From assembly GCA_036630325.1 (NCBI GenBank), contig CP142731.1, positions 620,001-684,000 on the forward strand: a DNA stretch of 64,000 nt, given 5' to 3'. The notes below the pieces were generated by a model that saw nothing but the letters and a program-made list of their open reading frames with translations, had not been told where the DNA came from and did no database searches. Shown here in pieces: positions 17,094-55,604 of the stretch (position 1 is the first letter of the stretch; the number at the start of each line of letters is the position of its first letter). Made by a program: the position numbers and the translations under genes. Source of the DNA: Vairimorpha necatrix (taxonomy: Eukaryota).

Positions 17094-19020
17094 TTTTATT
17101 TACCCTCATAAAAATTTTATTTATATTTTACATGTTTATTTACACCACAAGAAAACACTGTGAATTAACAAACTTAAACAATTGAATAAACAAATTTCTT
17201 AAAACAAACATACGAGTATTAAAAAAATATTATGATAACTTTGATTGCTTTTTACTTATAAGAAAAAATTAGAATGTTCAAAGTCGATTTTCCATGTCAT
17301 ATAAATCCTATTGTTGGAATGAAAACATAGGTTTATTTATTATAAAATATTTAAAGAACAACATGTCAAATGTCTCAGAAAGGCCAATGCGTGATTTGAC
17401 ATGTGTTACACTTCCTATACTAACCTACCTTAAAAGCTTAACATGATTTTGACTTGTCATAACCCTTTTTTCCATTATCAAGCATCACTTCAAATGAATT
17501 TAATCGCAGTTCTACAACCGTTCCTTTTTCTTCCCATTTTGGTTTGAATTTTTTTCTAAACGGTAGAATTAAATAATACCAAACTCTACTTTCCACCTTA
17601 ATGGCATTCTGTTACCGGAATTAGCTTTTTACTAGTGTCGTTTTCTCGTCTGTAAACATCCAAGTTTTTAATTGCTTGCTCCTAAAACTCTTTTTTATCT
17701 TTTTGGAGATGCATTCCTTCTTTATATCTATCTTATTTGAAGCTCTTCCTGTAAAAAGTTCTCGCTGCACACCCTATTGCCCTAGGATATGATTGCATAT
17801 AGACTCTGACTACTTTAGGAACTCCTTTTACCCAATCAAATTTCCTTAAATTCTGTAACCTTCCTTAACTTTATGGATAAAGTTCTATTAAACATCTCAA
17901 CAAGCCCCGTAGTTGTAGGTTTATTAGGTGAGCCATGTTTCCCTTGAATTTTTTTGGTCTTCGCATATTCCTCACATATATTATTTTTGAATTCTTTGCC
18001 ATTATGAAAAAAATAGATTTTTTCATACCATACTTCCTGATTATATGTTTATCTACAAAATAAATAACCGTGTTCTTGTCTTTTGCATAAATCGGCACCG
18101 CCTTAGCAACTTTCAAAAGGTGGGGAATCATTGTCATAAGAATTTATATCCTTGCTCGTTTTCTCTCAAGGGCCCTAATATGACTATTTCCTAAATAATT
18201 CCTATTGTCTTTGATACTAATACCACCATATCTCCGAATTTCCTCGGAGGCTTTTCTTTTTGACACGTTTCACATTATTCTACGTATTTTTCATGTCTCT
18301 GCCTAAATTCTTCCAAGTATATTTTCGACCAATATTATATTTCATATTCTGTTTTGATCCATGCCCTGATAAATCATGATTAAATTTTTATAATACTAAC
18401 CTACTATCTGTTTTGATTTTTTTTCTTTTGTATTGAATTTATTTCTAAAACAGTCTCCTCATGTTTTTTAAATTCTCTGCTTAGGTGATTTGTATAGTTT
18501 GATGGTCCCGTAATGTATTCAATATCGAAATCATATTCTTGTAGCAGTAATGACCATCTAGCCAACCTAGCTTTTACATTAATAGACTTAAACAAATATT
18601 CCAAAGCCTGATGATACGTTTTTAATGTAAATTTTCCTAATAATAGATATTCTCTGAGGTATTGAATCGATTTTATAACTCTAGCAGCTCTTGCTCAGTA
18701 GTGGAATGGTTTTTAATAAACTTTAAGCAATAGTTGTATTACCCTGTGGTATTACGACCACATGTAAAATTCCATTATTCTCAAAATGGAATTTCTTAAA
18801 TAACTTAAAAAAAAATTCGTTTTCTCCCCAACAAAAAGAAAAAAGAGATGCAGACAAAGGACACAAACAATAAACGATTTATTTATAAAAAAGCTCAAGA
18901 AGTCTATTATAAGTAGCTTACTAGAAGCCTACTATCAACGAGGGTTCATCCCTCGTGACCACCTCAAGTTGAATTCAACGAGGAAAACTCATATCAAAGA
19001 TCAAAAGAAAGAAAAAGAAC

Positions 19021-19369
19021 TGTGATGTATATTACTACATCACATGGACAGCTGCTAAAACCATCAGCTGTCACTTATGTCTAAGGACATGTCAAGCATT
19101 TCAAATGACCTGTCAAGATGAGTCACACAAACAAACAAACAAACGAAAGTTGGATGGTCGTTACTACATTCGTAAGTACGCCAATGTTTGTGTTTAGTGT
19201 TGACAAGAAATAATAAATTAAAAATAAACTATAAAAGAAAGTCTGTCTGTGAAGGGTATGGTATATATGGAGTATAAGAGAAATAGAGAAACCATCAATA
19301 AATTATATAATATTAAAAATTATTTAGAAAGCTATTTTAAATATAGCAAAGTCCCGTCTATACAGGACA
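19021..19369 (+). mobile_element. Solo LTR C (349 bp)
   Basis: TG...CA ends; 5-bp TSD agaac on both sides. Confidence 0.85.
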
Positions 19370-20033
19370 AGAACATACAGAATTTGAAAAAATATACAAG
19401 GAACTGCAGTTAAGAATAAAGTAAAAATTTATAACATTTATGAGATCCAACAAGATTTAACCATAAATCAACTCCAAAAATTTGAGATGTTAGCTAAAGC
19501 AAATGATTAGAATGACGAACAAATGGCTTTGATTTACATGGTTTTCATGCACGATCCAAGAAAGGATTATTTATCATCAGATTCTTATGTTGCATTAAGA
19601 ATGTCACTGTTAAATTTTATTTAGCCATCGGAACAAAAAAGACGTGCTATACGTAAATTAGATAATACGAGCCAAATAAGTTATTTTAGTATTAAAGAAT
19701 ATTTGAAACAATCAAGGAAAGACTTAACAGTTATTCATATCATAATGATCATAAAAAGAGAAGCTCTGCATAAAATGAAAGAAGTGATTCTAAAGAGACT
19801 AGGAGATTTCACACATTTAGAATTAACAAGACAAAATATGATCAGTTGGAAATCTATATAATTTATATTTACCTTGTTCTAAAAGAAAATAAAATTGTAA
19901 CTTAAGTCGAGAAACACAATTACCCATTATGAAAAAGAGAAATTCGATAATAACAGAAATACTCAACTTAATAGCCCGAAATGGTGTTAACTTCATAGGA
20001 GTAACTGTACTTATGGTATTAAGCGTTGCTACG

Positions 20034-23000
20034 TGCCATGTCTTGGCGGTACCTTGTTGGTTTTTAAAAAGGAAATGTAAATAGATTTACAAGTTGAAGA
20101 GTAATTCATATTTATTTAAAAATAATTTTCTTAAATAGTTTTTTCTGAATCAAATCAAATATAATTGGTTACACGAGTACCAATTAAAACATTGATCTGA
20201 AACAACTATTTCCTTGAGTATAATTGGTCATAGTGAGGGTATGACAGTTTCCCCCACCTTAGCCGGCCTTACTCTTTTGATATTTACCAATGTAAATTTA
20301 TCGTCTTCCAGAACCTTCAACTGATCCCCTTGTATAGATTCCACAATAAAAGGACCTAGCCATTTGTCCTCGAGTTTTTCTTTTGCGTTTACATTCTTAA
20401 TGTAAATATAATCACCTTTAGCAAATTTGTGACCGATTATTCTAGACTTGTTTAATTTAGCATTATCTTTAGCTGTTTTTGTATGTATGTTTTGGATTAT
20501 ACTTCGAGTGTCAAATGATAAATTTCGTTTGAAGGGATCGAGTGGACTATATTTAAACCTAAACTCAAATGGAGATAACCCGGTTGTTTTATGAGCAGCG
20601 TAATTTAAGGCTCTAAACGCTAATTGAATCGTCTCGCTTAAAAAGTTTCCTTTATTGATTCTTAGTATCGTAGCGATGGTTTGGTTAATCCGCTCACTGA
20701 TGCTATTTCCCGTAGGATTATATGGAGAAGTAAGAATATGCTTGATTTTATACGCTTGTAAAATATTTTCAAATTTTTGCGATATAAATTGTTTACCCCT
20801 ATCTGAAAGTAGAGTTTGCGGGATGGGGCACTGTTTAAGCCAATTGTTTTCGAATGCCTCAGAAACTGCTGCTGCGGTAATCTCTGGAAGTATAATTAGT
20901 TCTGTCCATCGTGTCAATCTGTCTGTGATTCTTAGTATGTAAAATTTGTTTTCAACTATATTTGACTTAAACTCGTCTGAGCGAAATGGACCTATTATGT
21001 CCGTAGATATATCTTTAAATGGCGTGTTTGAAGAAAGGTTTCCTTTTAGTTCTCCATAGTTTGCGCGAAAGTTTTTACTTGTTTGACATTTAAAGCATTG
21101 CTGACTAATATTTTGAATGCTTCGTTTAACATTATTTCACGTTAGATAAGTTTTTATGGAATTATAAAGCTTAACTTCTCCTGGGTGTCCTAAATAGTCA
21201 TGAATTCGCTTTAAATATGTTGTAAATATAGTATCTGGGAGGATAAGTCGGTTTACATTGTCTGATATAATGCCCGAATCATGGAGTATATATCTTTGTG
21301 GTGAATCTGCTACGCTTTCTTGCAGTTTAGAATCTTGCAGTTGTTGTTCTAAGATTTCTTTTAGGTTATATTTAAAATTTCCAAAAATGTAGTCCATTAG
21401 TGCACAACACCTTGATAAGTGATCTGGAACTACGTTTGTTTCTCCTTTAATATGAGTGATTGTGTAATCATATTCGTCAAGTAATAGTTTCCAGCGTTGA
21501 ACTCGTTTATTCAGGGCTTCTGTTGTAAAAAGTAAATTTGCGTTGTCTGTCTGGATGTGTATTTTTAAATTAAAAATGATTTGCTTAAAGTGTCTGAGTG
21601 ATTTAATTACTGCTAGAAATTACTTTTCCATAACCGTGTATCTTTTTTCGGCTTCTGAAAATTTGTAACTATAAAGTCCTATAAGGTTTTCGTCTTGAAG
21701 TAAAGTAGATCCTAATCCCTCTTCGGATGCATCTGTAGTAAGTAGAAAAGGTTTTTTGTAGTCGGGATAATTTAACATTGTTTGTCGTTTGATCTCCGAA
21801 ATAATGTTCTTTACTGAAGCATCTTCCTCTTTGGTCCACGAAAATTTGCTTTTCTTTGCTAGTTTGTTGGTCAAGAATGCTATTTTACTTGAAAGATTTT
21901 TGATATAAGGTCTGAACCAATTAATGAATCCAATAATTTTCATCAAGTCTTTCTTCGTTCTTGGGTTTTTTTTATAGTAAATTTATCAACCCGGGAAATG
22001 TCTGGTTTTATTCCTTTAGATGAAATTATATTTCCTAAATAGGTTACTTCTGGCACAAAGAAAGTGGATTTTTCAAAATTAACTGATGCGCCTGCCTTAC
22101 ATAGAAGTGATAATACAATTTTAAGATGTTCTTCATGGTCTTGTTGACATTTAGAATATATTAGTACGTCGTCTAGAAAAATTTTTACAAATTCGAGATG
22201 ACCCAAAAGGTCGGACATACATCGTTGGAATTCTCTGGGCGCATTGGCAAGCCCAAAAGGCATTCTTAGGAATTCATATTGTCCCCATGGAAGCACAAAC
22301 GCCGTTTTGTGAACATCTTGTTTAGCGACTGGGATCTGGTAATAGCCCATATTTAGATCTATTTGTGAAAAAATAAATGCTTCCTGTAATGATCGTAATT
22401 GTTCATGAATATTTGGAAATGGGAATGCTTGTTTTACTGTTACTGAGTTAAGTTTTCTGTAGTCTATTACTAACCGAATTTTCCCGTTTTTCTTCAGAAT
22501 AGGGAATGCCGGTGATGCGTAATGAGACGTGCTCTTTTGGATTATCTTTAGTTTTAAAAGATTGTCAATTTCTTGCTTGAGTGGTTCTTGTATGTTTATG
22601 GACACTTGGTAAGGTTTTGAAAATACTGGAGTATTAGTAGTTGTTTTTATCTGAAAACCTTGCAAAGGTAGTTGCCCAAGTGACGGATTGTTTTCTTGTA
22701 CGTCTTTTATGTATGATTTAATAGAATCTGGAATATATGTACTGTCGTCTTCTGTGATCATTTTTGTTTTAGAGTAAATGATATAGTCTGGATTGTTTAT
22801 CCAATCTTGATAATCTTTGTTCGTAAATTGAAACCTCTTATTCTGAATATAAATAGATTTTTGGTGATAGTCTATTACTGTATTGGTATTATTTAAAAAG
22901 GGTCTTCCCAATATACAGTCCAGAATGAGATCGTCGAGTACGATTAAAATAACTCTTTCTTTAACGCTTTCTGATTGTTTTATTGTTAAATATACTTCGA

Positions 23001-24230
23001 CGGCCTCGTTAGTATTCGAGGTAATACCGTTTCCATATTCGATTCGCCTGTTTCTGACTATAAGAGGGGTAAGTTCAAGTTGTTTTACCATTGATCTACT
23101 CATATAGTTGCTGCTTGCTCCTGTGTCGAATGATAGGGTAATTTGGGTTTGGTTGACATTTCCCAGTAGTTCGGGCAACCCAATTGGGGTATCTGGTTCT
23201 TTAAGAATTAAATTTTTATCATTTCTCTGGGTAACGCTTCCCTTAGAGCTGTTTAGCGCTCTACAATCTTTCGTGTAATGTCCACGGCTTTTATGAAATG
23301 TACAAAATGGTTTCTGTTGGTTGTGTTCTTTTTTATTCTTCATGGATTTAAAATCCAATTTAACACATGGCTCTTTTCCAAGGTTAATAATTGTCTGTTC
23401 TATTTCCTTAATTTGATTCATTATGGATATAGAATCCCTTAGATTAATCTTGGCCATTTCTAATTTCGTTGTTATATCTAAACCTTGGTAAAAATACTCA
23501 GATATTCTACTATTCATATCTTTCTCGGAGATTCTTAAACACCATTTTAGTTTCGTTGTAAGGTCTTTAATTCGATTATGATATTGTTCGATATATGTAA
23601 AATCATTCTGTTTTGTTCTTTGGATCGCATCTAAGTACCAATGGGAATCCTGTTCGGGATAGGCGCTGTAAATTAGCGCAAGAAAATGCTTTTCTATGTC
23701 CAAAATTTTCTTCTTTGGAAGTATATCTAAAAGCGAAGGTGTAACTACTGAATGCAGCACGGCAATTGAAAGAGATGCTGACCATTGGCATTGTTCCATG
23801 GTTTCTTTGAACTCTGAAGTCCATTGAAAAATATCCTGTATTGTTAAATCGTTAAGTTCTGTGATAGACTTTGAAAGTTGTAACGAATTTGTAGGATCGG
23901 GAGAAAAGGTAAAAGAGTACTGTTTAAAGTCTTTCTTTATTTTTGACAGATTTGAACCTGGTTTGTTAAAGCTCCCTGCATGAATAAAATCTTCTTTGTC
24001 GGCGTATGACGTCATAATGCCATGTCTTGGCGGTACCTTGTTGGTTTTTAAAAAGGAAATGTAAAAAGATTTACAAGTTGAAGAGTAATTCATATTTATT
24101 TAAAAATAATTTTCTTAAATAGTTTTTTCTGAATCAAATCAAATATAATTGGTTACACGAGTACCAATTAAAACATTGATCTGAAACAACTATTTCCTTG
24201 AGTATAATTGGTCATAGTGAGGGTATGACA
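20034..24230 (-). mobile_element. Full-length Gypsy element D
   Basis: 213-bp LTRs (20034-20246, 24018-24230; 1 mismatch seen); TSD ctacg; PPT ggtgggggaaac; gag CCHC-type knuckle, PR FDTGA, RT FLDD, RH and IN, with a few stops/frameshifts. Confidence 0.97.
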
Positions 24231-24976
24231 CTACGCCCTACAGAATAAAAAAAGATTGCTTGAATTTGCAGATCATAAGGATAAAAATATGATTATAAAA
24301 CAACGTGGCTAATGTCCCGAAGACATTACTGTAATTAAAAATAGGTAATAAGGATGCGAAAATGATATTAGATAGCGGATCAAGAAGATATATAATTCTA
24401 AAAGAGCAGTTATGAATTCAATTAAAGAAAGAAGAAGGTGCGCAAATTGAAGCCATAATTGGAAATAATGAAACAGAAGAATCAAGTGAAATAATCAATA
24501 CTGTTGTTACGATAAAAGAAAACCCCTTTGAAGTAAAATTTTGCGTTTTAGAAAAATTCCCCGTTAATTTTGTTCTAGGAAACGAATTTCTTGACATATT
24601 GTGCAAAGTTAGATTACGCCGAAGGAACGGTAGAATTAGATGGACTACGAAATGACATGGTACATAAAGCAGGAAATGCGGAAGAATTGCTAGATAAAGA
24701 AATAGTTAATAAATTATGTCAGGTTAGCGAAAGCAAAGAATAATAAACTATTAGACTTCTATATTAATGAAAACAAAAAATTTACCTTTATGAAAGCAAA
24801 CCTAGCTTCGTTTAATGTAATACGACCAGTTTTAAAAACAAAGAAGATTACCTATACAGTTTCATTTAAATATATTGAAAAAGCGAAAATGGAAATTAAA
24901 AGACTTTTAGATGCAGATATAATTATAAAAAAGTTTTTTTTGATACAATAAGTTCTGCATTTTTCATAGAAAAGAA

Positions 24977-26346: not shown

Positions 26347-29300
26347 TAAACATTTATTCTAGAATAGGGGCTATAAATAATTATTATTTCACTCAACATC
26401 CCCCTCATTCAAAATAATCCTCTACTATTAGCTTAAGTTGCGAGCCATGTCGCTTTATAGTTTTATTATGGACCTTAACGTTATAAGAATTATTTCCTAA
26501 AATATTAATAATTATACCTTGCGATTCCAATCTAGGTTTCCCCTTTGTTAAATCGGTTTCTCTTCTAATTATAACTCTATCTCCCTCTTTAAAAATAAAT
26601 TCAGCTCCTCTTTTCTTCTGTCGTTGGTTGAATTTTACGATTTCTTCGAATTGTTTTAGTTTAATCTCCTGAGCTCTCTTAGGATTACATGCTTCGTCTG
26701 GCGACCTGCCAAGAGCGGAGTGTCTAACATTATTGTATACATCTAGTACACGCTTAGTTTTTGTCTTCAAATTTCCAAAACTATTATCTTTATATATACC
26801 TTCCTGTATTGTCCTATTAAATCTTTCTATTCTTCCGTTTGATTGGTGATGAAAAGGGGAAATATAATGAATTTTAACATTATTTCTCGTTGCCCATTGT
26901 TTTACCTCAATACTCAAATTTTCTTTTGACTGATCAAGAATTAGTATTTTAATCTTTATGTCATTATAAACTTCATCAAAAAATTTCACTGGCTTATTAC
27001 TCTCTCTAGTAGTAATGACTTTAGCCCATGCTTTCCTTGTAAAATAGTCGATCGCCGTAATTATATAGCTTCCATTGATTGGTCCTATAATATCGGCAGC
27101 TACCTTTTAGCCAGGTTCGTATGCTGTCACAAATATAAATTTTTTTCCTCTTTGTGGATTGTACATCTTACATCTTAGACATTTATTAATTTCCGTTTTT
27201 ACCATATGCGACATATCTTTCCAATGATATTTTTTCCTTAATTCATTTTCAATAACTTTTGATCCTCTGTGAACTAATTCTATATGTTTATTCCTTATGA
27301 TAGACCTTTTTTCTTCTTCGCTAAATTCAATCATATTTATTTCATCCGTATTTAACTCATTAAGATAAGATCTTGACAAACAATCGACGTGAGGAATATC
27401 TGTCCCCTTTTTGTACTCGATCGTGTAATTATACTCACTCAATTTATCAAGCCACCTTTGTATACGTAACGATTTTATTTCGCCTTTATTTAGGACCTCT
27501 AGAGCTTTGTGATCAGTTATTACTTTAAACTCATTTCCATATAAAAAATATCTAAAATTTTCCATTCCCCATAGGACACCCAAGCATTCTTTCTCGCTGA
27601 TACTGTAATTTCTTTCCGCTGGAACCAATCTTCTAGAAGCGTACGCGATTGGGTACACATGCCCTTCATTTTCTTGTGACAAGATCGCTCCCAGACCAGA
27701 GTCACATGCATCCGTTTCTAATATGTAAGGTTTACTAAAATCTGGCTGTTTAAGCACACTGCTCGACAATACAATTTTCTTTAATGTATTAAAAGCAGCA
27801 TCCTGTTCCTTCCCCCAATTAAATTGAATATCATTTTTTGTAAGATCATATAAACATCCTCCGATTTTTGAACAATTAGAAATAAATTTTCTATAATAAT
27901 TAATAAGTCCCAGAAATTCTTGCAGTCATTTTTTATTGATTGGTCTTTTCATATCGTTAATTGCTTGGTCCCGTGTAATTTTTGGCTTAATTTCGTTATA
28001 TGCTATTAAATGTCCCCAAAAGGTAAGTTCTTTAACCTTATATATTGTTTTATCCTCATTAATACCTAAGTTATAGCTTTTAAGCTTTGTTATGATCTTC
28101 TCATAATTAAAATCATGTCCTTCCTCGTTTTCTCCAAAAACCAGTATGTCATCCACATACACGAAGCAACTTTTCCCTATTTCTTCTTGTAAAACATCAT
28201 CTATAAATCTTTGAAAAATTGCCGGAGCATTTTTAAACCCCATTGGCATAACGTTCCATTCATATAATAGGTGCTTAAATCTGAAATCGGTCTTATATCT
28301 ATCTTTTTCCGCCAATTCTATACAAAAAAATGCATCTTTTAAATCCAATTTACTAAAATATTTTTTCCCACGAAGCCCGTATAAAAGCTTACCAATGTGT
28401 GGTAAGGAGTAATTATCTAGCTCTATCAATTTGTTTAACGAAACTAAATTTGTAGTAACTCTTATAGAATCATCTGGTTTAATTACTGGTCTTAAATTAT
28501 TCAACCACGTTGATTTTGATTTTCTTATGTAATTTTTCCTTAGTAGTTCTTTGATAGATTTTTCCACCCCTTCTTCTAACTTTTTTGGTAGTGTATAGAC
28601 CTTTTCAACAATTTTTTCTCCTTTTATCGTATTTATTTCACAAATTCTATTGCTAGACACCCTTTTCAATATTTCTTGTAATGTCTTTTTTCCTACAAGT
28701 ATTTTAAATTTTTCCACCTTAGGGAATATAAAAAATTTAGAACGATAACTTTTACCACCATAAGAGAAATCTAATATCACATATTCTGTAATCCCGAATC
28801 TTTCTTCTAAACATGTAAAAAAATATATTTCCTCTGTACTTCTATAAATTTTTAAAGTTAGTTCAGAAGCAGCCTTTTTACTCATAAAATTATAGTAAGA
28901 ACCCGAGTCAAAAGTTACATTAATTTTTTCATTATAAACATATATTAAATCTTTTTTATTGTTAATAAAGTTTGCATCCAACATTCCGCCTTCTTGGTGG
29001 ATCTCATTTATCCTTTTATACTGTAGTTGTTTACCATCAGTTCTTTTCTTCTTCGCAAAACAGTCTTTAGCAATATGCCCATTTTTGTGGCAAAAATAAC
29101 ATGAATATCTTTTGTTGATGTTATTGGAGGCAGGTTGTCTTATTTTTGTTATATCGTTATTTTCCTTTTCCATTTCATCAATTATTTCAAGGAATTCTTT
29201 ATTAATTTCATATTGCCCTGTTAAAACCATTTTTATAGCCTTATATCTTGGTAAAATTCCATTTCTTATGATCTTCCTTTTATCAGTATTTCTGATATTT

Positions 29301-29680
29301 TCCTTTAGACATTTCTTTTCTACATCTTTGATAAATTCCACAATACTTTGGTTTTCTTTTTGTTTTTGAGTATATAATTCGTACAATCCAGTACCGCAGT
29401 CAAATTCCGTTTCTGCCAACTCTTTCCACATTTCAAATGTTAATGAACATTTCCGTTTCTCCTTCATTAACTTACTATGCCAATCTAGTATCTCAATGTT
29501 GGCTTTATGAATAAAATAATCAATTTTTTCCTCATTTGATAATTTATTAAAACTGGAAAGTAAAGAAGCTCTTTGTAGCTCCTGCAAGATATTTTCACTA
29601 CTAATCTCTGTTTTCATATTCTCCACCATAAACATTTATTCTAGAATAGGGGCTATAAATAATTATTATTTCACTCAACA
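26347..29680 (-). mobile_element. Full-length mini Gypsy element F (3334 bp)
   Basis: Identical 52-bp LTRs (26347-26398, 29629-29680); TSD atttc; PBS TGGTGGAGAAT; PPT gaggggga; CCHC, FDSGS, YVDD, TDAC and IN motifs. Confidence 0.97.
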
Positions 29681-42137: not shown

Positions 42138-45100
42138 ATGAAAAAAATGAGGGTAAGGACAGAGCAGGAGGAAGAAACCGAAAAAATTACAAAACAAACC
42201 TCTATAGCAAACATAGACAAAGTAGACACAGAAGAGAAAGAACAGGGGCCAGAACACACTAGTGTGCCCACTCAATCCACTTCTGAGACTCTTGCAGCAG
42301 TACTTGTGAGTACCGAAGCGAGTGAAGAAGAGTGGCCTCAAAGAGTATTTCTATCAATCATAAATAGATTTGGTAGAATACCAAGAGGAGGGTGGAATAA
42401 AGCTACCGAGTTCTTCTGTGGGAAATTTGGGTCTAACATGAGTTCACTAGAATTCAAGGGCAAAGCGAAGAAAGCACTCACTAGTAATAGGGGTAGACAA
42501 ATGACGGCCCGGGAATTTTTAGTGAACCCTGCCAAAAGAAGAAAAGCCGAAGCTGGCTCGAAAGAAGGGAATAGTCTCTTTGAAACCGAGCTCTTTCTGA
42601 AAGCACAAAAATTGTTCTTGGAGAAACTCGGTTGTATTCAGAACACATGTGTCGACCAGGTAGAAAGAACAAGGAAGATTTCTTCCTTGAAGGTTGATCT
42701 GTTGAAACTTGATGCTACAGTCAAGGCGGTAGATAGTCATGTTAGATACCACCCCCCTCATAACATGACAGAGATGGCAAGGGTACTGCAAGCTGCACAG
42801 ATCTGCTATCAGGAAATGGCCAGTAAGAAGCCTAAACCTTCGTCTTGGAAAGAAAGTATCTTGAAAAAGATTACTGAGATCAAAGACAAGGTAGTGCTTA
42901 TCAAAAAGGCCAGGGCTTTTGATAAACTCTCAAATGAGGAAAAGCGTGAAGTCAAGAAGGTAATGCGTGAACTCAACATGCTTGCATTCTTACACCGAGA
43001 TACTTCTGAAGCTATTGCTATACTCAACGAGAGGAAAGCCATATACTGAAGGAAGCTAGAGGTCGCAGACCGACGCAGAGAGTATAGGCGTGAAAATTAA
43101 AACTTTGAGCTATATAGAAGCAATTTCTATAGAAAACTCAAGTGTGCCAATGAGGTTACTCATAAAGTAAGTAAAGAAGACATTAGTTCATTCTGGTCTA
43201 CCATGTGGAATAAGAAAGAGCAATCCGAAGACTGCAATAGTTTCGAGGAGTATCTTCTAGAATACATTCCCGATAGCCAAGATCAGATCACTTTCCTAAC
43301 CTTGCAAGAATTTGTAGATATTATTAAATATTTACCAAATTGGAAGGCTGCAGGCTGTGATGGAATCTTCAATTTCTTTATTAAGAAGTGTGCAGCTCTA
43401 CATCCATTCCTTTACAAGATTGTTAAGGAAGTATGCCTGGATGGGAAAGAACCCGAAGCTTGGTTCTACAAGGGGATTACTTATTTAATACCCAAAGCTA
43501 CTCCCACTAGTGGTAATGACTTCAGGCCTATTACCTGTATGTCGAACCTCTACAAGCTTACAACGAAATGCACTACGAGAGTAATGCAGCTAATTGTAGA
43601 AAGTAGAGGGCTACTAGCAGAGAACCAACTAGGGACAGTTAGACAAGTCCAAGGAGCAAAAGAGCAAGCTATGGTTAATATAGCAGTCAATAAGGAGCAT
43701 GGAAACAAGCTGAAGACTATGTGGATAGATGTAAGGAAAGCCTACGACTCCGTAGACCATTCTTATCTATTAACATGTATCAGCAAGTTGAATCTCCCTC
43801 AATGGATAAGTAAATTCTTAGAAGTCACGGTTAAAAGGTGGCAATTGAGATAAAATCAGGATCGGAAACGATACTGAATAAGAAGATTGAAAGAGGCATA
43901 TTACAAGGTGATTCCTTGTCGCCGCTTTTGTTTGTACTATGTATGGACCCGTTGAGCAGGAAACTGAATTCAACTTACCCAAAAGTAGGAATACAGACTC
44001 ACGAAAGTGTTTATGTAACAAACCATCTTCTATTTATTGATGATCTTAAGCTCCTCGCAGAGAACGATGACGTTTTAAAACTGATGAAAAAGGAAACTAA
44101 AAAGTTTTTCTCTGCTGTAGGTTTAGAAATGAACAGGAGTAAGTCTGCAACTAACTGTAGTGATTGTAGTGAAGATGCAGTAGTACTAGAAGGGCATCAG
44201 GGATACAAATACCTTGGAATAACAGAAGATGCCTCTAGTGCTATCAAAAGAGAGACTTTTGAAAAAGTGAGAAGTGAGATCCTACAGAGGGTTGAAAAAC
44301 TGTGCAAGACTCAATTAAATGGTAAGCATACGATTCGAGCTATAAACGAGCATGCAATATCAGTAATAAACTATCATGTAGGATTATTAAAATTAGAACC
44401 AATAGATTTCAAAAGTCTCGATTTTGATATCCGACAGGTACTTATCAAGTACCAGGTCCATCTACAGCCAGCCTGCAAGGAAAGACTATACCTTCCTAGA
44501 TCCGAAATGGATAGAGGCCTCATAAGTATCAAAGATAGAAGCGAATTTATGCTTCTGAATATTTATAAAACGTTAGATGGGTCTAGAAATAGCTCACTAA
44601 GACGGGCAGCGATACTTAAAGTAGAGGCGGAGAGCAAATCCCACTTGTTTACAATAAACGAGTATCTAAGGATTAGGTATAGCTTTGTAGGAGAGATAAC
44701 CCAGAAGATGCTAATAGAATCCCAAAAAGAGGCGCTTTACAACAAAATTAACATAGGGACAAACCATGGAAAGTTGTTTAAAGCTTAGGACAATGATTTA
44801 GTGTGCATTAGGGACTCTTCTACCTGGCTGTTTAAAGGAGACAATCAGGCTAGATCCGAAGCAATTTACTGCTTCCTACAGGATAGAAATATCTTCTGTG
44901 GACAAGAGGGACAATGTCCCCATTGTGGATCTCATAGGAAGACCGTGGATCATTTAGCTACCAAGTGTGATCGAATGTTGGGTTTTGATTATATGAAAAG
45001 ACACAACGAGGTAGTTAGATGCATTCATCTCTTACTATGTATTAAATATGGGTTTAAGAAGACAAAGAAAATACGTTGGACTTTCAGTACAAGAGATCAT

Positions 45101-45575
45101 GGAAAATGATCGTGCTGAAATAAGAGTAGATACGAGAATATCTACTAATATAAAGGTAACCCATAATAAGCCTGATATTCTTGTTTTTGACAAGAAGAAG
45201 AAAGAAATTTTAATAGTTGAAGTTGGTATAACCAACCAGGATCGACTTACTATAGTTGAGAATGAAAAACTAAGAAAATATGACCTTCTTGCAAATGAAC
45301 TGGGACTAATACATAAATCCCAGACAAGAATAGTTCCTTATGTAATGACATGGGATGGAGTGGTGACCAAATATCACAGAAAGTACATCAGGGAGCTAGA
45401 AATCCAACCCTACCTGGAAGCATATATCCAGTCTATTGTGATGAAGAAGACTCTAGAGTCCATCTCTTTGGAACGACGACGAGGATACGATCAGGAGGAT
45501 GCAGGAGAAGAAGAAGTGGCTAGAGCTGTAAGCGCACTAGCGAATATGGTGACTGTTAAAGAGTGGTGTCGGTAA
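42138..45575 (+). mobile_element. Non-LTR retrotransposon of the restriction-like endonuclease type (R4/Dong-like), disrupted ORF
   Basis: WKAAGCDG, FRPITC, GILQGDSLSP, LFIDD, CPHC..H..C, RHNEV, KPDILV..IVEV..KLRKY. Confidence 0.92.
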
Positions 45576-45736: not shown

Positions 45737-48700
45737 TGTCTTTATTTATCATAATGGGGATAGAAATTATACAAATATATCACATCCCCCCTCAAGACGG
45801 TTAGTCTCATCTAATTTTCACATCTACCCCAAGCATACCCTTCAGATCATAATGTCTCTTCTTCACAAGCCTACCATTACTAAGTTTTACAATATAAGAA
45901 TCCTTTCCACACTTTTCAACAATTTTTCCTGTATCCAAAAATCTTCCTTTTTCATACTTATTAACACCTGCCAAATTTTCTCGTTTAGCTATTCTTACCA
46001 ATTGACCTTTATTAAATTTTTCGATCTTTCCTTTTCCAAACCTATTACAATATTTCCCTATAGGGCTATTTTCAAGCATTACGTCTCCAGTTTTATCTTC
46101 AGTCGCTTCTAATGGTGTACATTTTATTCCCGTATGATAGCTCTGATTATATATATCGATACTTTTATACACTTCACCTTCAAAAGTTTTCGCATCCGAC
46201 TTTAAAATACTTTCTCTCAAAGTTCCTATAACACGCTCTACTCTTCCGTTACTTCTATGCGCTTCTATACTTACTTGTCGGTGTATTATATCGAGATCTC
46301 TACAAAATTTTCTAAATTCCACGTTAATAAACTCTTTCCCGTTATCTGTAATAATTTCTTCTGGTTTCTTCCCTTGCTCACATAATCTTTTCAAAAATCC
46401 AACAACATTATTACTTGACTTGTTATTTATAACTACTCCCCATACTCTACGTGTAAAATAATCGATAGCAACTAAAACATATTTCTTCTCATTTCTAAAG
46501 TCTATCAAATCTAATGCAACCTTCTCTAAGTATCTCGACGTATCTACAAATTCACAACCACCCATATTTTTCCTGTTATATATCTGACAATTCTGACACT
46601 GTTTTATAACCTCGTTTATTTCTTTTTTTACTCCTGGCCAATAGTATTCTTCTCTCATTGCATAATAAACACTTGTCATGCATCTGTGGCCTACTTTTTC
46701 ATGATATTCTTGGATTAATTGTCTCCTTATATTCTCAGGTGGTATTTCAACTTTACGTCCTGAGTCAAATTGCCAATATTGCTTTCCATTTACCTTCTGT
46801 TTGCTTGATTGTTCGCTCTTTATTTTTCATTTATTTAATATCCTCTTCCATATTTATTCGACTCAACGCATCTGCTACCACCATCCCATCGGGTTTTTTA
46901 TATTCAACGATAAAATCATATTCCTGTATCTTCTCGATTGAACGATTTATTCTGTTATTATTGAAAAACGGGTTATTTCTTATCTCCACCAGTGCTTTGT
47001 GATCCGTTTCTATCTTGAATTTCCTACCCCTTAACTCGTATTTAAATTTATCAATGACCCAATATATCGCAAGCATTTCCTTTTCTGATATTCCATATCT
47101 TATTTCGGTAGGTGTTAGCTTTTTAGATGCCCATTGTATAGCAACCCATTCCCCATTCTCACTCTTCTGAAGTAACACCGCACCCAATCTCAAATTGCTA
47201 GCGTCTGTTCTTAGTATGAACTCCTTATTATAGTCCGGTAATCTTAGTCTTCTCCTATTTCTTAACATATTTTTCATTTTAGTAAATTCCTCTTTCATCT
47301 CTTCCGTAAATTTCCACGAATTGCCATTTTTCTTCAAACTATCTGTCATTTTCAACGTCAGCCCGGCATAATCTTTTATAAATGGTCTGAACCATCCAGT
47401 CAATCCTAGAAACCTCCTCAATTCCGTCAAAGTTTTTGGATCCGGATACTCCAAGGCTTCATTTTTCTTTATTTCGTCGGCCGTCATGTCTATTCCATTC
47501 AGCGTAACACCTAATAATTTTACTTCCGCTTGTCTAAACTGTATTTTCCCAATATTTAATTTCATTTTATTTCTCTTAATTCTTTCTAAAACCTCTATTA
47601 CTAATTCATCGTGTTTACGTTTATTGTTGGCATGTATTACTATATCGTCCATGTATACCTCATCACCATTTCCCCGCAAATCTTCAAAAATCATATTCAT
47701 CGTTCTCTGTAGTATCTGTGGGGAATTTTTGTATCCCATCACCATACTATTCCATTCGTAAACTTTTTTATTAAATTCAAACGCCGTCTTATGTTTATCT
47801 TTTTCTTCGATTTCAAAATGATAAAATGCTTCTTTTCAATCAACAACAGTAAATATTATCGACCCTTGCGTAGCTCTTATTATTTCTCTCATATTCGTTA
47901 GCTCATACGGGTCTTTCTCGACTAAATCATTCAACCCTATAAAATTACTAACTACTCTTACTTCACCACTTGGTTTAAGTATCGCTCTTATTAAGTTCCG
48001 CCATTCCGAAGACGATCTTCTTATAATTTTTCTATTTTCTAAATCATTAATATATTCCTCAGTCTGTTTGATCAAAGCCTGTGGGATCGTCTGTCCCTTT
48101 CTGACTATCTTCTTACCCTCTGGAGTATCTATCTTACACTTCTCTAATGTACAATAACTTATAACCTCATCTCCTTGTTTAAAAACTTCTTCATATTTCG
48201 CTTTGAGATCTTCCAACGTAAATTCCCTCTTCAGTAATCTTCTTTTCGTCTCTTTATTGCTCGCATATATTTTTTCTTTATGTCTTCTATCACTATTATT
48301 ACATTCCTTTAACTTAACTCGTTTTGTCTTTCCACTTGGTTTATATTCTTTATTATCATTACTGCTACTACAACTTTGGTTTTCGTCTAAATTTAAGTAC
48401 TTATTAAACTTTTTATTATTTTCCTGATTATTGTTCCTTCCTAAATAGCAGTTCCTAGCCATATGGCCAAATTTACCACAATTAAATCAATTCCTATTAT
48501 TTCTTATTTCTTGTACTGTACTCCTTAAAACTAAATCTTTCTCTTGAATTTCTTTTCTCACAGTTTCTCAAACACCCACAGCTATGACCTCCATAAGTTC
48601 TCTCCTATTTTCTTCTTCTTTTTTAGTTCTTTCTTCTCTACATATTTCCTCCTCTAATTTCTCAATTATTTTATAATAGTCGTCCTCTTTACTAATTCTT

Positions 48701-48926
48701 TCTACCATGAAATTTTTTATTTCTTCACTTCCTTCCATAAATATTCTCTGCTTCCACAAACTGATTTCTACTTCCTCCATCTCCAACCTATACATTATTC
48801 TTCTGACTTCCTTTAATAACTTTTTGGCCTCTAGACCACAGTCCACACTTGTAAACTGACGATTCGGTATCGCCCCCATGTCTTTATTTATCATAATGGG
48901 GATAGAAATTATACAAATATATCACA
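45737..48926 (-). mobile_element. Mini Gypsy element J (3190 bp)
   Basis: Identical 48-bp LTRs (45737-45784, 48879-48926); PBS TGGGGGCG (tRNA-Pro-like); PPT gagggggga; RT YMDD, RH and IN; flanks tatat/tttat. Confidence 0.95.
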
Positions 48927-51900
48927 TTTATTTTCGTTTGTTTCTTTTCTCCTTCCATAAGATGGGGTAAAATATTATAAAAATATAAAGAAATATCCAA
49001 GCATTATAAATGCTCGGTTTAAGCGTAAGTAATTACGACATCCTCTCACCTCTAATAACAGCCTTTAAATGAGCTTTATTGGTTCTTCGTTCAGTCTTTC
49101 CATTTGTTACTAGGTATGCGTCGTCTGAAAGTCTTTTCAAAATTTTAAATCCTAAAGTCCAATTTGATCCCATTTTATTTTGAGTGGATCGAAATACGGC
49201 CACATCATCTCCTTCCTTATAAACATGTTTGGGTTCTTTTTTTCCTTTAATGATATGTTGCTTATATTTTTCAAATATTCTCTTCCTTGTCTTTTTTCGA
49301 TTATTCATTGAAATTAAAACTCTAGGTTGATTCAAAGTTTTATCTATATTCAATTCTGGTAATCTTCCTTTTTTATATACGAATGGTTAAGTCCCAATAT
49401 CTCTGTTATAAGATTAATTTACGGCTAAAGTTGCAACCTCCACCAGCTTTGTTCAATGACTCTTTCCAAAATCGGTAAGCTTTTTCAATTTGTTCATAAA
49501 TGTTTGGATCACACGTTCAACAGCTCCAGTGGTCCGATGATGGAATGGGGACGAGAAGTCCCATTTAATACCGACCCTTTGGGCCCAACCTGAAACCTTT
49601 GTATTTGCAAATTCTAGTCCACAATCTGATAATATTCTATTGGGGTTTTCGTTGGACTTATTCATAAATTCTATCAAGTACTTTTATAATTTCTACAGAG
49701 GGTTTCTGGTTGATTATTTTCGTCTTAATCCATTTAGTATGGTGGTCTATACAGATAACTATAAATTTGGTTTTACCGTTGTCATTTAATCTACCTACTA
49801 GGTCTCCTTCCCATAGTTCGTTGGGGTTTTTTGTTTCGATTACTTTATTTTTAGTTTTGACTTTTTTCGCCACCCACTTTTAAACATGTTAAACATTTGT
49901 TGTAATAGTTATCTATATCAGTGAACATTCCCTTCCGCCAGTATCTTTCTTTTATAATCGCTTTCATGTTATTTGCTGATCCATGTCCTAATGTAAAATG
50001 ATATTCTCTCAAAATATTCTGTCTTTCTATTATAGTTATATTCATATTCTCTTCGCGCGTTTTATGTACGCTACAAACTCTCGAGTATCCATCGGCTGCG
50101 TTGTCTTCACCTTTTATGTATTCGACTTTAAACTTATATTCTTGAAGTTTCATAGCCCATCTAAGTAATCTTGTAGTCAGGTCCTTGCATTCCCACAAAT
50201 AAACTAGCGCACGATGGTCGGTCTTTAATATAAATTCATTCCCTACAAGATAGTGCCGATAGTTTTCTATTCCTTTTACAACGGCCAGAAGTTCTTTGTC
50301 TGTTACAGAATAATTCAACTGATGTTTGTCAAAGCTTTTACTGTATACTGATATCATCCTCTCTGTGCCATTTGCGTCTACTTAAGCCAATATTGCTCCC
50401 ATTCCTATATTAGATGCATCGGTTATTAAAATAAATTCTTTGGGAAAGTCTGGCTGTATTCTTGAAGTCTCTTCAGTCAATTCTTTCTTTAATGATTCAA
50501 ATGTTAGGATGATTATCATCGTGTTCTATTTTCTTGCAGCTTTTTTTACTTTCTCCTTTTAATAAATTAAAAATAGGTCTTGATTTTTCAGCATATTGTT
50601 TTACAAATTCTCTACGATAATTTATTAATCCCAAGAAAGATCTTAGTTCTCTTAAATTAGTTGGAATCGGATATTTTTCTTATTGTCTCTATCTTTTCTG
50701 GGTCTGGTTTTATTTTTCCTTCAGTTATTACGTTTCCTAGTATCTTGAGCTCAGTCTTATAAAATTTACATTTTTTTAAGTTAAGAGTGATTTTGGCCTC
50801 TTTAATTTTAATTAATACGAGTTCCACATGCTTTTTATGTTCCGTAATGTTTTCTGAATAAATAATAATATCATCTAAATACGCAATAACAAATTCTCCC
50901 AAATATTCTCTCAAAATTCTATCCATAGTTTTTTGGAAAGTTGCTGGAGCATTGCAAAGCCCGAATGGCATTCTTACGAATTCATAATGGCCTGTTTTCC
51001 ATGAAAATGCAGTTTTTTTCTCTATCCTTCTCATCGACCTTAATTTATAATATCCTGATGTAGCGTCTAATGAAGTAAATATACTTGACTTATTAATTTT
51101 TCAAGAATTTCATCTATCCTTGGGATAGGGTATTTATCTTTTATAGTGATCTTGTTTAGTGGTCTGTAGTCTATACACATACGCAAGGTGCCATCAGGTT
51201 TTGTTACTGGTACTATTCTGCTGTTCCATGGACTCTTACTATAAGTGATAATGCCCAATTTAAGATTTTTGTTTATTTCATCGTCAATTGCTTTTTCATA
51301 GTGTATTGGGATTCGTGATGATTTACAGTATATCGGTTCACTTTCTCCGACATCTATATTATGTCTACCTTCTTGACAGGTCTGTTCTGTATTGATTTCT
51401 TCTTTAAACAGTTCTGGATATTTTTTCAAAATATCTTCCTTGCTTTTTAGATGTTCTTCTTCTTCGACCTGATTAATAGTTAGGAACTTCTCTATTATTT
51501 TTTTTGACACAAGTTTTTTATTTGTCAGTACTTTAATTAATATTTCTGGGTGCTGCGTTATCACATCTGTCCCAACTATGATGTATCTTGGTTCTGTTTC
51601 AGTAACAAGAGGAGAGAAATTTTTTTTGGATCCAAAGATTTCTATTTTGATATTTTTTAACTTTGCCGTTAATTTCATATCTGTTCCACAAGCCGATCGT
51701 ATCGTATTCTGATGTATGTATTCTTTCATATTAGAACTAACTATATCCCGATGTATTATCGAGACATCGGCTCCAATATCTATGAGACATAATCTTCTGG
51801 TATTGTCAATTTGTGCATATATAAAGAATTTGTTTGATGTATTGTTTAGCGTATTTACCGAATAAATAAAATCAGTTTTATTTTCATAGATTGTACTGTC

Positions 51901-52761
51901 TTGGTCAATTTCTTCTTCGTCTTCTTTCACTACATTAATTTTTTTTTATTTGATGGTTCTATCCAACCCATATTCTTTAGTTTTTTTATTGTGAAACAGA
52001 ATTCTGTATCATGATTACCCGTCCCATGGATCTTACAAAATCTTTTTTGTTTATGAGGGTTTTTATATTTAGTGGGTTTTGTATAGTTAGTTTTATTATA
52101 GGTGGTTGAAACTCTGTTTAGTAATTTATCTGGATATGCTATCCATGATAGTTGCTCTGCTATTTGGCAGAAGTGTTGCCAGTCTCTTGCCTTTTCGGCT
52201 GTTTCAAAAAGAGAGGCTTTAATTGTATCTGGGCACTTGCTAATGAGTACCTGCATTAATGCTCTTACATTCATAAAATTTTTGTTTAAAAGAAATGTTC
52301 CAGTCTTAAGTAATTCTGAAAATTCTTCTCTTGATAAGGGTGTAGGGGAAGTAAGGAATTTTGATAAGGTAAATTCCGTGTCATTATACTTGACAAATCG
52401 TTTCTTTAGAAGGGTTGTAAATTCATCGCCTCTTATTTTCCATTGCCTGCTTTAAAATAATAACGAAGCCCAAGAAAGAGCTATTCCTCCCAGCTTCATC
52501 ACTATCAGTTGCATTGAATCTTCCTCTCCCAAACCTGTTAATTTAGTAATAATCAGTAGATATCTTAGCCATACTACTATATCTTCGTCTGGATTACCAT
52601 GGAAATTTATTATACCATTGGCCATTGTCGCCATGTTAGTAAAATTATTTATTTTCGTTTGTTTCCTTTCTCCTTCCATAAGATGGGGTAGAATATTATA
52701 AAAATATAAAGAAATATCCAAGCATTATAAATGCTCGGTTTAAGCGTAAGTAACTACGACA
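48927..52761 (-). mobile_element. Gypsy element K (3' LTR clipped by J)
   Basis: 5' LTR 52634-52761; 3' LTR remnant 48927-49040; PBS TGGCGACAA (tRNA-Ser-like); gag, PR IDIGA, RT YLDD, RH and IN. Confidence 0.93.
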
Positions 52762-55604
52762 ATAATAAAACGATTAAATCTTCTACATTTTTAATCATTA
52801 ATGGATTTAACATTTATGACCAATTACAGAGAGATTACAACCATATTAGTATCTTAAAAGAAGAAAAAAATCTATTTGGTAAAAGTTGGAGACATTTGTA
52901 GAGAAAGAATATGTAATGCTAGAAAATTGGGACAAAAATGGAGCAAGAGGAAGAAGGTATTATGTGTCGGCAATAAAGGGTACTGGATCAAACCGAAATG
53001 AAATAGTAGATGGACTCATATTAAGAACATTAAACTCTATGGGGGCAGAATATGGTATTATAACCACATGGAAACGTTCATTTTCCCCAAAAACAAATTT
53101 CTTAAATATTTTTAAAAAAATTATTGTTGTTTCCCAACAAAAAGGAAAAGGAGGTGCGGACAAAGGACACAAACAATAAACAATTTATTTTTAAACAAAC
53201 CAGGCCCAAGGAGCCTATTATAAGTAGCTTACTAGAAGCCTACTTTCAACGAGGGCCCATTCCTCGTGACCACACAAGTCCTAAGAAGGATCGTAATTTC
53301 TTCTTACTTTTAGGAACTGGTAATCCTTGAATGCTTTTCATTCTTTCTCCATCCACACTTATTCCCTCTTTTAACACAACATGACCTAGGATTTTTATGT
53401 GGGTATTTTGAATTCGCACTTTTTCTTTTTAAGTTTTAGTCATACTGATTGAGCTTTTCTAGTACCCTCTTCTCATCTCTCCTATGATCTTTTCCATTTT
53501 ACTATAAATTAGTATATCATCTATATATACTGCAACAAATTTGAATAAGAATTCTTTTAAAATGTTATTCATCGCCCGCTGAAATGCAGCAGGTCCATTA
53601 ACAAGCCCTAATGACATTTTTGTAAATTCAAATAATCCTTCTCTACAGGCGAAGGCTGTTTTTTCGATATCACACAAGGTCATATCAATTTGATGATATC
53701 CCGATTCTGCATCCAATCTTGTGAAGTAAGTAGCTCCCTCTAATGCATTAATAAATTCTTCTACTCGTGGCATTGGGTATGCATCTTTAATAGTCGCATC
53801 ATTCAATCTTCTATGGTCCACACATGACCTGTGGTCTCCATTCATTTTTGAAACAATTATTATCGGACTTCTCCATGCACTTTCACTAGATATTATGATT
53901 TCCATGTTCAATTATTCTTTTACTATTTTAGAGGCTATATCTTCTTTCGCATCACCTAACTTGTATAACTTTGCAAGTATTGGTTTATCATCTTTTGTGA
54001 TGATCTTGTGGTAACCTATGGCTTTACGCTTTGCCACTAACCCGGATTGGATTTCCATTCTATTATTCCCAGATATCAAAATTAATTGTTTTAAACAGTA
54101 ACTATGTCCTATGATACATGGAATAGTAATATCTCTTGTTATAATAAATTTATTTCAAATATCAACCCACTAATCAATCTTTATTTTAATTACTTTTTCT
54201 GCAATGATCTTTTTTTTCGATCCATTGGCTGCCCAAAACTGTTGTTTAGAACGATTAACGGCGGGGTTGTTTGGCAAAGCTCTGGTCTAAATAGATTTAT
54301 ATCAGCTCCAGTATCGTTAAGCATTTTAAACTTAGCTCATGAATCGTTTAAGGACGCTTTCTGAAGCGTAGTCCTACTATCCTCGAACTTTGGAACAGAG
54401 CAATTATAAATAAATTTCTTTAGATCTACCTTCTTTTTGACTTTTCTTGTCTTCTCTTATATCACTATGAAAACTATATAATTTACATCCTGACACTATA
54501 TGGTCTTTTTCCCGCGAATAAAACACCTTATTTAGCCGTTACTCACAGGATCCCCTTAATTTTAAAAGTGGTCCTTGCAACTTTTCGCTTTTGCATTCCT
54601 AATACCTCCCCTGCGAAATTATTGTATAACATCTATCTTCCCCAGCGCTAACATTACTTAGGGCTTTGTATATATATATATTCGTAAAATAATATGTCCT
54701 ACTGATTATTAAAACTATGTTTGCTATATGATTTAATAATCCTTTCAACACAAAGGCAATCAATATGTCTTTTGGAACATTCCCCCTTCGCGCCAATCCC
54801 GCCATCTTATCTAAATAGTTGACGAGATATCCACCATGATATTAAGAGGAGATAAGTTTATCTATGGTCACTTTCGTCGCCATGTTACCAACAAACCTTT
54901 CTTATAAAATTGTCAGTCTTTCAAGTTAAAGGCCAATTGGCTGGGGGATTATCCAATCCCTTGCCTCTTTTTTTATGCAGACATTTTTAACAGGAGTACA
55001 AGTTTACCCTCACGTACTCTCTCAGTCTTCTCACATCTAACAAGTCCTCCAAGAATTGCTGTATATCATCTTTCTCTTCATTTCTGAAAATGAGAAAGTT
55101 CCTGACGTTGTTGCCAAATTGTTGGAATGAAAACATGGGCTAATTTATTATAAAATATTTAAAGAACAACATATCAAATATTTTAGAATGGACGCTGCCG
55201 AATTCGTCATGTGTTACACTTCTTACCCTTTTAATTATAAAATTTTCTTGATTATCAAAATCTATTAAAAGTAATCCGTATAGTCAACAAAGATAAATGT
55301 GTGGATCCAATTATATATTGTAGAAAATAGACATGTTGTAATATGGAAAAAAGTAATCAATAATTCTTTTGATTAGCAAGGTTGCATAGGGAATTAAAAT
55401 TAAATAAAACTTAAGATAGAGCATCGAAAATACTTTTTATCAGGTATTGACTGGACATCATAAATTATAAAAAGCAATTTAATCATCTATACCATATGTA
55501 TTTGCCATTAAAATGCAGAAAATAACTTATAATAACAAAAACTAATGTGATCGGATAATCCCACGTTTTTGCAAAACATAAGTTAGCATATTAATCAAAA
55601 TATA

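Follow-up and report, generated by a model that had tools for sequence, protein, structure and literature searches.

Long terminal repeats that very probably encode the Gag N terminus in a clade of Ty3/gypsy-type elements of Vairimorpha necatrix

We analyzed a 64,000-nucleotide (nt) stretch of the genome of the microsporidian Vairimorpha necatrix (GenBank assembly GCA_036630325.1, contig CP142731.1, positions 620,001 to 684,000 of the forward strand), which is called the window below and in which positions are counted from the first letter. Open reading frames (ORFs), self-comparison and the reading of the ends of long terminal repeats (LTRs) showed that a nest of LTR retrotransposons, with one non-LTR element, occupies 18.7-53.3 kb, and that the window holds ten LTR families (B, C, D, E, F, G, H, I, L and M). 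An earlier note had reported a conserved peptide of 17 residues encoded by the last ~52 nt of the LTRs of six families (B, C, D, H, I and L), and had proposed that the transcribed parts of the LTR, R and U5, double as the coding region of an N-terminal helix of Gag. The feature is real, and this reading was right in its core, which is borne out by open frames, by a protein-level signal and by relatives: the transcribed part of the LTR very probably encodes the Gag N terminus. The result extends an arrangement that is already known.

The peptide and the open frame at the LTR ends

The peptides of the six families were each matched exactly once in the window, at the LTR end given for them, and a seventh LTR family with the motif, M, turned up in a relaxed pattern scan. 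In the six frames of the 64 kb, the relaxed pattern gave 13 matches, 8 of them at LTR ends and from six families. The gap between the peptide and the LTR terminus was 1 nt in D, 3 nt in H, 0-3 nt in B, 1 nt in C and 1-2 nt in I, L and M, which agrees with the claim that the peptide ends within about one codon of the terminus. The motif was absent from families E, F and G in the same window. The peptides are listed here with their positions and strands.

53226-53276, plus: family B, SLLEAYFQRGPIPRDHT, exact match
19318-19368, plus: family C, NYLESYFKYSKVPSIQD, exact match
24019-24069, minus: family D, SFYISFLKTNKVPPRHG, exact match
32536-32586, minus: family H, SILECYLHYGHLPGGNT, exact match
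37245-37295, plus: family I, SLLEQYFRFGSLTRGYN, exact match
34379-34429, plus: family L, NLIELYLSRGSSSGLRQ, exact match
62100-62150, plus: family M, GLIEAYLKNGHVPIGHL, from the relaxed pattern scan
18915-18965, plus: B copy 1 (B1), variant SLLEAYYQRGFIPRDHL
20035-20085 and 33174-33224: D 3' LTR and D solo LTR, variant SIYISFLKTNKVPPRHG
30784-30834: H 3' LTR, variant SILKCYLHYGHLPGGNT

The LTRs of the motif-bearing families start with TGT and end with ACA or GCA. A blastn comparison at E 1e-5 showed no likeness of the LTR families to one another, so B, C, D, H, I, L and M are distinct families. The LTR ends of D and H were set by LTR pairs, and that of B by the point where the likeness of its two copies stops. 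The C end was set at 19369-19371, where contigs of other copies break or join, and the ends of I, L and M only by the match of first and last bases (TGTGGTA.. / TGTTATG..). The LTRs and related features are as follows.

18745-18966, plus: B copy 1 LTR; the two B copies are 82% alike
53051-53276, plus: B copy 2 (B2) LTR, preceded by a purine tract
19021-19369, plus: C LTR, ATG at 19258, end from contigs of other copies
19388-20002, plus: C gag-like region, in a frame different from the motif frame; decayed copy
24018-24241, minus: D 5' LTR, one of an LTR pair, ATG at 24093-24091
20034-20257, minus: D 3' LTR, partner of the 5' LTR
33169-33396, minus: D solo LTR, third D copy
32533-32843, minus: H 5' LTR, 99.7% like 30781-31091, ATG at 32730-32728
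30781-31091, minus: H 3' LTR, of the LTR pair
37015-37296, plus: I 5' LTR, ATG at 37140; its 3' LTR is cut short at 41564-41619
34126-34431, plus: L LTR, apparently solo, ATG at 34259
~61921-62151, plus: M LTR, seventh motif family, with TATAAATA, ATG at 62019
E LTR, 52 nt: without the motif, tRNA-type TGG primer site
F LTR, 49 nt: without the motif, tRNA-type TGG primer site
G LTR, 115 nt: without the motif

The motif of D and H had been described as in frame with gag from an ATG inside the LTR, and both ORFs were found as described. In D, the ATG at 24093 opens a 716-residue gag-protease-reverse transcriptase ORF across the LTR boundary. In H, the ATG at 32730, the first after the TATA box, opens a 539-residue ORF into gag. 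Both elements are intact, and in both the LTR ATG lies downstream of the promoter and in frame with gag over the boundary, as in a Ty1-like arrangement. The H 5' LTR reads, in order, 5' hairpin TGTGGTA..TACCACA, TATAAATA, ATG, motif and terminal ..ACCACA. Families C, I, L and M show the same layout as D and H, with an ATG in the LTR and a frame open to the LTR end. In C, D, H, I, L and M, the ATG of the ORF is the first past the TATA-like box, 28-39 nt from it. In family B, GTG stands in B2 at the position of the B1 ATG, and the B1 ATG is out of phase with the motif. The motif frame was the longest upstream open frame in all nine LTR copies (10-80 codons, compared with 0-39 in the other two frames), and it was open past the motif start for 36 codons in B1 and 51 codons in I.

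AATAAA precedes the motif by 12-51 nt and, wherever it falls inside the ORF, is in phase 0 (Asn-Lys); because it stands just upstream, we infer that the motif corresponds roughly to U5. For microsporidian mRNAs, PMC2803860 reports 5' untranslated regions (UTRs) of <7 nt and CCC/GGG motifs ahead of start codons; in the present elements, H, I, L, M and C have such motifs in front of their ATG.

By their TG..CA LTRs and their domain order, the elements can be assigned to Ty3/gypsy (Metaviridae type). The D ORF has Pfam matches to an aspartyl protease and to RVT_1, and a CX2CX4HX4C zinc knuckle is visible in the D and H ORFs. The Pfam order of protease, reverse transcriptase, ribonuclease H and integrase is complete in two relatives, P0006 and P0128. 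Purine tracts of the polypurine-tract kind precede the D 3' LTR (GGTGGGGGAAAC) and B2.

Two further features of the LTRs were observed. Every LTR of the clade opens with a short hairpin, the second arm of which repeats the terminal sequence of the LTR, for example TGTGGTA-TTATT-TACCACA with the LTR end ..ACCACA. These hairpins lie at 32843-32825 (minus), 37015-37030, 34126-34146, 19021-19044, 61921-61940, 18745-18762 and 24230-24211 (minus), and L011, a related locus described below, has one likewise (TGTCGT..ACGACA). A box, AATGAATTTTCTAGAAA, which contains the palindrome TTTTCTAGAAAA, is common to the H and I LTRs upstream of TATAAATA (H 32778-32789 and 31026-31037; I ~37081-37100), with a weaker version in B; it is likely a promoter element.

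Protein-level signal, U5 hairpin and relatives

The likeness of the peptides was scored as sum-of-pairs BLOSUM62 over the seven families, and the null was obtained by shuffling letters within nucleotide columns. For all 17 codons, the observed score was 434 against a null of 222±43, and none of 5000 shuffles reached the observed value. Codons 1-10 scored 394 against 200±33 (0 of 3000 shuffles), whereas codons 11-17 scored 40 against 23±26 (p 0.26) and showed no protein-level signal. The five other frames scored -107 to -271. The Ser at position 1 is encoded by AGC in B and H and by TCC/TCT in I and D. The data showed that codons 1-10 are conserved at the amino-acid level. The pattern put forward in the earlier note, [SN]-h-h-E-x-[YF]-h-x-x-G-x-h-P, therefore stands as a protein motif over codons 1-10 but not in its G-x-h-P half. 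The codon-position analysis that the note had proposed gave identities of 0.395, 0.546 and 0.364 at positions 1, 2 and 3 (permutation p 0.056), a weakly coding-like result.

A GC-rich hairpin (SL2) was found in the last ~30 nt of all seven families, with a sequence that differs by family.

18938-18956 (B1) and 53249-53267 (B2): family B, ACGAGG / CCTCGT
34400-34420: family L, TCCAGAGG / CCTCTGGA
37276-37289: family I, CCCTC / GAGGG
62131-62147: family M, ATGTCC-CCATA-GGACAT
32535-32548, minus: family H, TGGTG-GAAA-CACCA
24019-24031, minus: family D, GCCA-AGACA-TGGC
19351-19368: family C, GTCC / GGAC

The last 57 nt folded better than dinucleotide shuffles in seven of seven families (z -0.75 to -3.2, Stouffer -5.56); the flanking 57-nt windows gave -0.86 and -1.86 for the two upstream and +1.23 for the downstream one. 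The hairpin does not keep to the peptide register but is shifted by several nt, so that it cannot explain the fixed peptide pattern. It accounts for the G...P likeness (GG...CC) better than for the fixed first half. The earlier note had held that the reading would fall if nucleotide-level U5 structure explained the conservation by itself. Such structure does not explain codons 1-10; it also acts, because the G-x-h-P half coincides with the hairpin, and the choice between the two was wrongly framed as one or the other. A first hairpin (SL1) over codons 1-6 was seen in B1, B2, H and I only, in differing registers, and is not claimed.

Relatives were collected with phmmer, with the D polyprotein as query against 1.8 billion representative proteins. 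The matches were gag-pol proteins with 29-42% identity to D. Among the 151 proteins listed, 17 had the motif in the first 120 residues followed by [ML]-x-S 15-24 residues on; one of the 17 is a cluster mate (near-duplicate) of another and one is doubtful. The spacing from the motif to [ML]-x-S was 18 residues in 10 of the 17. Examples of the motif in relatives are SLLETYLATGRAIHRCD, SIYNFYLKTGRVPHGYN and SLYESFLSHGRLRVNPD, and ILESYFRTNKVPVIQD is the motif in a protein named for Nosema granulosis. Ten relatives were looked up, and two of them bear the names Nosema granulosis and Dictyocoela roeselum, the sources of the nearest relatives that have a name. A hidden Markov model (HMM) of the seven peptides was searched among the gag-pol relatives with a divided outcome: its five best matches in 221,881 residues all fell within the first 45 residues of relatives, but only two exceeded the best reversed-database control, 6.5 bits.

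An alignment of four sequences was used as the query in searches for loci. The metagenome scan gave 10 loci, one of which (L001) contained the LTR-gag junction, the genome scan gave 2 loci, one with the junction (L011), and the viral scan with this alignment gave none. The L001 metagenome contig carries an integrase end, an LTR starting TGTGGTGAC, ATG..SIYNQYVKHGYITP.. and then ATGAATTCAT, with putative LTR limits.

The structure of D Gag residues 1-300 was modelled by AlphaFold from a 24-row alignment (mean predicted local distance difference test score, pLDDT, 80). The model predicted a helix at residues 10-17 (mean pLDDT 90 for residues 11-20), disorder at 25-42 and then a helical capsid-like domain, and the N-terminal Gag helix that had been proposed for the motif thus appears in the prediction. 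Foldseek matches to the capsid-like fold of D had weak E-values (0.05-0.7).

The palindrome at the primer-site position

Perfect palindromes of 12-16 nt were found at the position of the tRNA primer site, starting 0-2 nt from the LTR end.

32522-32533, minus: H, AATGAATTCATT, 12 nt, read in frame M-N-S-L
24005-24016, minus: D, TATGACGTCATA, 12 nt, 1 nt past the LTR end, read M-T-S-Y
18968-18979, plus: B1, GTTGAATTCAAC, 12 nt, read K-L-N-S-T
~391-402: L001, AATGAATTCATT, 12 nt, as in H
1735-1750: L011, TAATTGATATCAATTA, 16 nt

In H and L001, the sequence is palindromic with the final A of the LTR counted in (A/ATGAATTCATT, the slash marking the LTR end). The changes between palindromes are compensatory: the centre is AT, CG or TA, and the outer pair A..T or T..A. 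The background is 59 twelve-nt palindromes in the 64 kb, and no palindrome follows the LTR in the decayed copies I and C. The ten-nt form (A/T)TG-Axx'-TCA-(T/A), read in frame, gives N, I, T or S as the second residue; it also predicts the first letter of the codon three residues on, T after Met and A after Leu. The second residue was N, S or I in 16 of the 17 motif-bearing relatives, and the Met/Leu rule held in 6 of 6 and 11 of 11 cases, respectively (Fisher p 8e-5); four DNA-verified cases fit as well. Judged from the encoded [M/L]-[N/I/T/S]-S-x, the palindrome appears to be conserved across the relatives.

In D, H, B1, I and L001, no tRNA-type primer site (TGG) follows the LTR; the comparison covered one tRNA gene, that of the window. 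The sequence TGGTGGA in the H LTR, a 7-nt match to the 3' end of tRNA-Met, was rejected as a primer site because it is present in both H LTR copies.

Schizosaccharomyces pombe Tf1 is self-priming, and its primer site must pair with the initial bases of the RNA of the element itself. The elements studied here resemble Tf1/sushi elements as members of Ty3/gypsy that lack a tRNA primer site and have a U5 stem-loop (the Tf1 U5-IR) beside the priming site. They differ in showing no significant LTR complement: a comparison of the 30 nt after the LTR with the LTR gave a longest complement of 6-9 nt in five of five elements, which did not exceed that of shuffled LTRs (P 0.09-0.77), and Tf1-like self-priming was rejected. 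For the fungal GalEa copia elements, the passages of PMC5445492 on the 'Conserved Hairpin Site' describe a 9-bp palindrome (CTGATCAGT / CTAATTAGT) that stands where a primer-binding site would be expected, and there the authors had no model for it. As far as these passages describe it, GalEa shares with the present clade a palindrome directly past the 5' LTR, the inclusion of the final LTR A, the absence of a tRNA complement and compensating central pairs. It belongs to another superfamily and has another sequence. The palindrome described here usually lies inside the Gag ORF. The second complementary copy of GalEa (CHSeq2, placed 12-41 bp downstream in these passages) had no counterpart within 80 nt downstream in five of five elements, where the longest shared word was 0-5 nt, and a GalEa-like second hairpin arm was rejected.

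Families E (26347-29680, minus) and F (45737-48927, minus) have very short LTRs, 52 nt in E and 49 nt in F, in which a TATA-like box is present. The ATG of Gag is placed within the final LTR bases or spans the LTR end (E, ATGTTTA/TGG; F, ..GACA/TGG, with the slash at the LTR end). The tRNA-type primer site would be translated; the E primer site, TGGTGGAG, matches the 3' end of the window tRNA-Met (7107-7179). This would be a second solution to the shortness of the leaders.

Other features of the window lie around these elements. In a contig from run X1, 20033 is followed by 10 other letters and then by 24247, so copies of family C without the D insertion exist, and D is therefore a nested insertion in the gag of C. 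A non-LTR retrotransposon resembling long interspersed nuclear elements, with a reverse-transcriptase ORF, lies at 42111-45575 (plus) and adjoins the cut-short I 3' LTR. Three related ORFs (..ETAICNG.IVSN.. / ..TDGYPSYP..) at 30096-30866, 55889-56428 and 60659-61634, all minus, are at a guess fragments of a DDE-type transposase, and one of the three crosses the H 3' LTR in another frame. A run of ~20 G and T/C-rich repeats occupy 61620-61684, just upstream of the M LTR.

Explanations and comparison with known systems

The best explanation, and in our judgement a probable one, is that B, C, D, H, I, L and M form one Ty3/gypsy clade in which the start of Gag, the hairpin-bearing U5 and the palindrome at the primer position are all translated. 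What helix, hairpin and palindrome do in this account is proposed from the sequence. U3 would consist of the terminal hairpin, the promoter box and the TATA box, and transcription would begin almost at the first ATG. R would encode the N-terminal tail of Gag, which is basic, rich in Asn and Lys and poorly conserved, and in which the in-frame AATAAA is read Asn-Lys. U5, the last ~52 nt, would encode the 17 conserved residues. Codons 1-10 (S-h-h-x-x-[YF]-L-x-x-G) would be kept for the protein, as a short amphipathic helix before the capsid-like domain, and codons 11-17 mainly for the nucleic acid, as a GC-rich U5 hairpin beside the integrase end (..ACA), with the hairpin encoding a linker. The palindrome would replace the tRNA primer-binding site and be read through as [M/L]-[N/I/T/S]-S. 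R, U5 and the primer site would be translated likely because microsporidian mRNAs have almost no 5' UTR and the element needs all three at the 5' end of its RNA.

Several observations weigh against this explanation. The codon-position identities by themselves are only weakly coding-like, and the permutation test is somewhat inflated since the families were first noticed by the likeness of their peptides, although the motif is in 7 of the 10 LTR families of the window. A word-based protein search with H Gag 1-330 found no relatives at E 0.01. The LTR ends of I, L, M and L001 were placed by terminal inverted repeats only, and the start of transcription, the poly(A) site and the use of the frame by ribosomes are predictions. 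The ATG at the LTR junction (M-N-S) in many relatives could be the real start. Finally, L011 keeps the U5 hairpin (CCAGC/GCTGG) and the palindrome, but its LTR is non-coding and its Gag starts just after the palindrome. Hence both of these elements can exist apart from the ORF and would act as nucleic acid, and the helix-coding part would be an addition in one sub-clade.

The strongest rival reading, which we consider unlikely, is that the last ~52 nt are kept as U5 for a nucleotide-level function only, namely a hairpin with which reverse transcription begins and the integrase end, that the frame is open by accident, its composition being A/T-rich and Lys/Asn-like, and that Gag starts at the junction ATG. 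L011 is what such a reading expects, as are the good folding of the last 57 nt in all families, the silence of codons 11-17 at the protein level and the ATG that D, H, L001 and many relatives carry at the junction; yet B1, I and 11 of the 17 motif-bearing relatives have Leu rather than Met there. Nor does a nucleotide-level function explain why the amino-acid likeness of codons 1-10 lies far above that of the shuffled nucleotide columns, why the Ser codon switches between codon families from one LTR family to another, why the motif frame is the longest open one in every copy or why the hairpin slides while the peptide does not. The confident AlphaFold helix on the motif also speaks against it.

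The LTR frame might instead be translated as a separate short upstream ORF, or as a long isoform of Gag, with the main Gag made from the junction ATG; the glyco-Gag of murine leukaemia virus is an example of an alternative long isoform. This is quite improbable. D and H do carry both an LTR ATG and a junction ATG, and in the model a disordered stretch links the helix to the capsid-like domain. A separate upstream ORF is impossible in D and H, however, because there is no stop between the two ATGs, a near-leaderless mRNA would use the first ATG, and many relatives have no junction ATG. That the likeness was picked by eye from A/T-rich LTR ends by chance, which the shortness of the motif and the two HMM matches above the control might suggest, is hardly credible and appears already contradicted by the relatives, the N-terminal placement of the five best HMM matches, the negative scores of all other frames, the fixed position at the LTR end in seven families and the independent discovery of the seventh.

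The translated LTR of the present clade can be compared with known elements. The earlier note had called the arrangement unusual on the ground that LTRs are normally non-coding, which overstates its oddity: in the parts of PMC5454406 and PMC4974528 on the 5' end of yeast Ty1, the start of GAG is placed in U5 of an LTR of 334 bp, the RNA starts at nt 241 with a 53-nt UTR, and the primer-binding site, RNA nt 95-104, is inside GAG. With Ty1/Ty2 as portrayed there, the clade shares an ORF that opens in the LTR, translation of the sequence at the primer position (the Ty1 TIPIRT domain) and an overlap of 5' RNA structure and coding. Ty1 is of the copia type, with a structured 53-nt UTR and a tRNAiMet primer site, whereas the clade is Ty3/gypsy and has no tRNA-type site. 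Arithmetic on the published figures gives ~14 LTR codons in Ty1, compared with 25-66 here, where nearly all of R-U5 is coding and the motif is kept across families, unlike in Ty1. The LTR-encoded start of Gag is thus not unprecedented but extends the Ty1 precedent in a more extreme form. The microsporidia-specific Ty3/gypsy groups of Parisot et al. (2014, PMC4202319) have, as set out in its main text, a single polyprotein, and share with the present elements the single gag-pol ORF and the Ty3/gypsy domain order. That main text uses 'PBS' zero times and 'gag' once, and does not describe an LTR-encoded Gag, the motif or the palindrome; searches of open-access papers brought up no description of these for microsporidian elements.

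A tentative extension of the explanation, possible but doubtful, is that the U5/primer-site module of Gag helix, hairpin and palindrome serves priming free of tRNA: the palindrome would pair two packaged RNAs, one strand would be cleaved, and its 3'-OH would be extended on the partner. If true, palindrome priming would amount to Tf1 self-priming carried out in trans, and the GalEa palindrome would be explained too. Apart from this model, a conserved palindrome with compensatory changes in two unrelated superfamilies points to a mechanism of priming or dimerization.

For annotation, the rule would be that Gag of such elements starts in the LTR, and that finders which require a tRNA primer site miss them. 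Within one stretch of ~75 nt, parts selected for protein, for RNA and for the palindrome would stand side by side. In most LTR elements, R, U5 and the primer site are non-coding leaders. If the explanation favoured here is right, the present clade shows the near absence of microsporidian 5' UTRs reshaping a mobile element, in which R, U5 and the primer site are read as protein.

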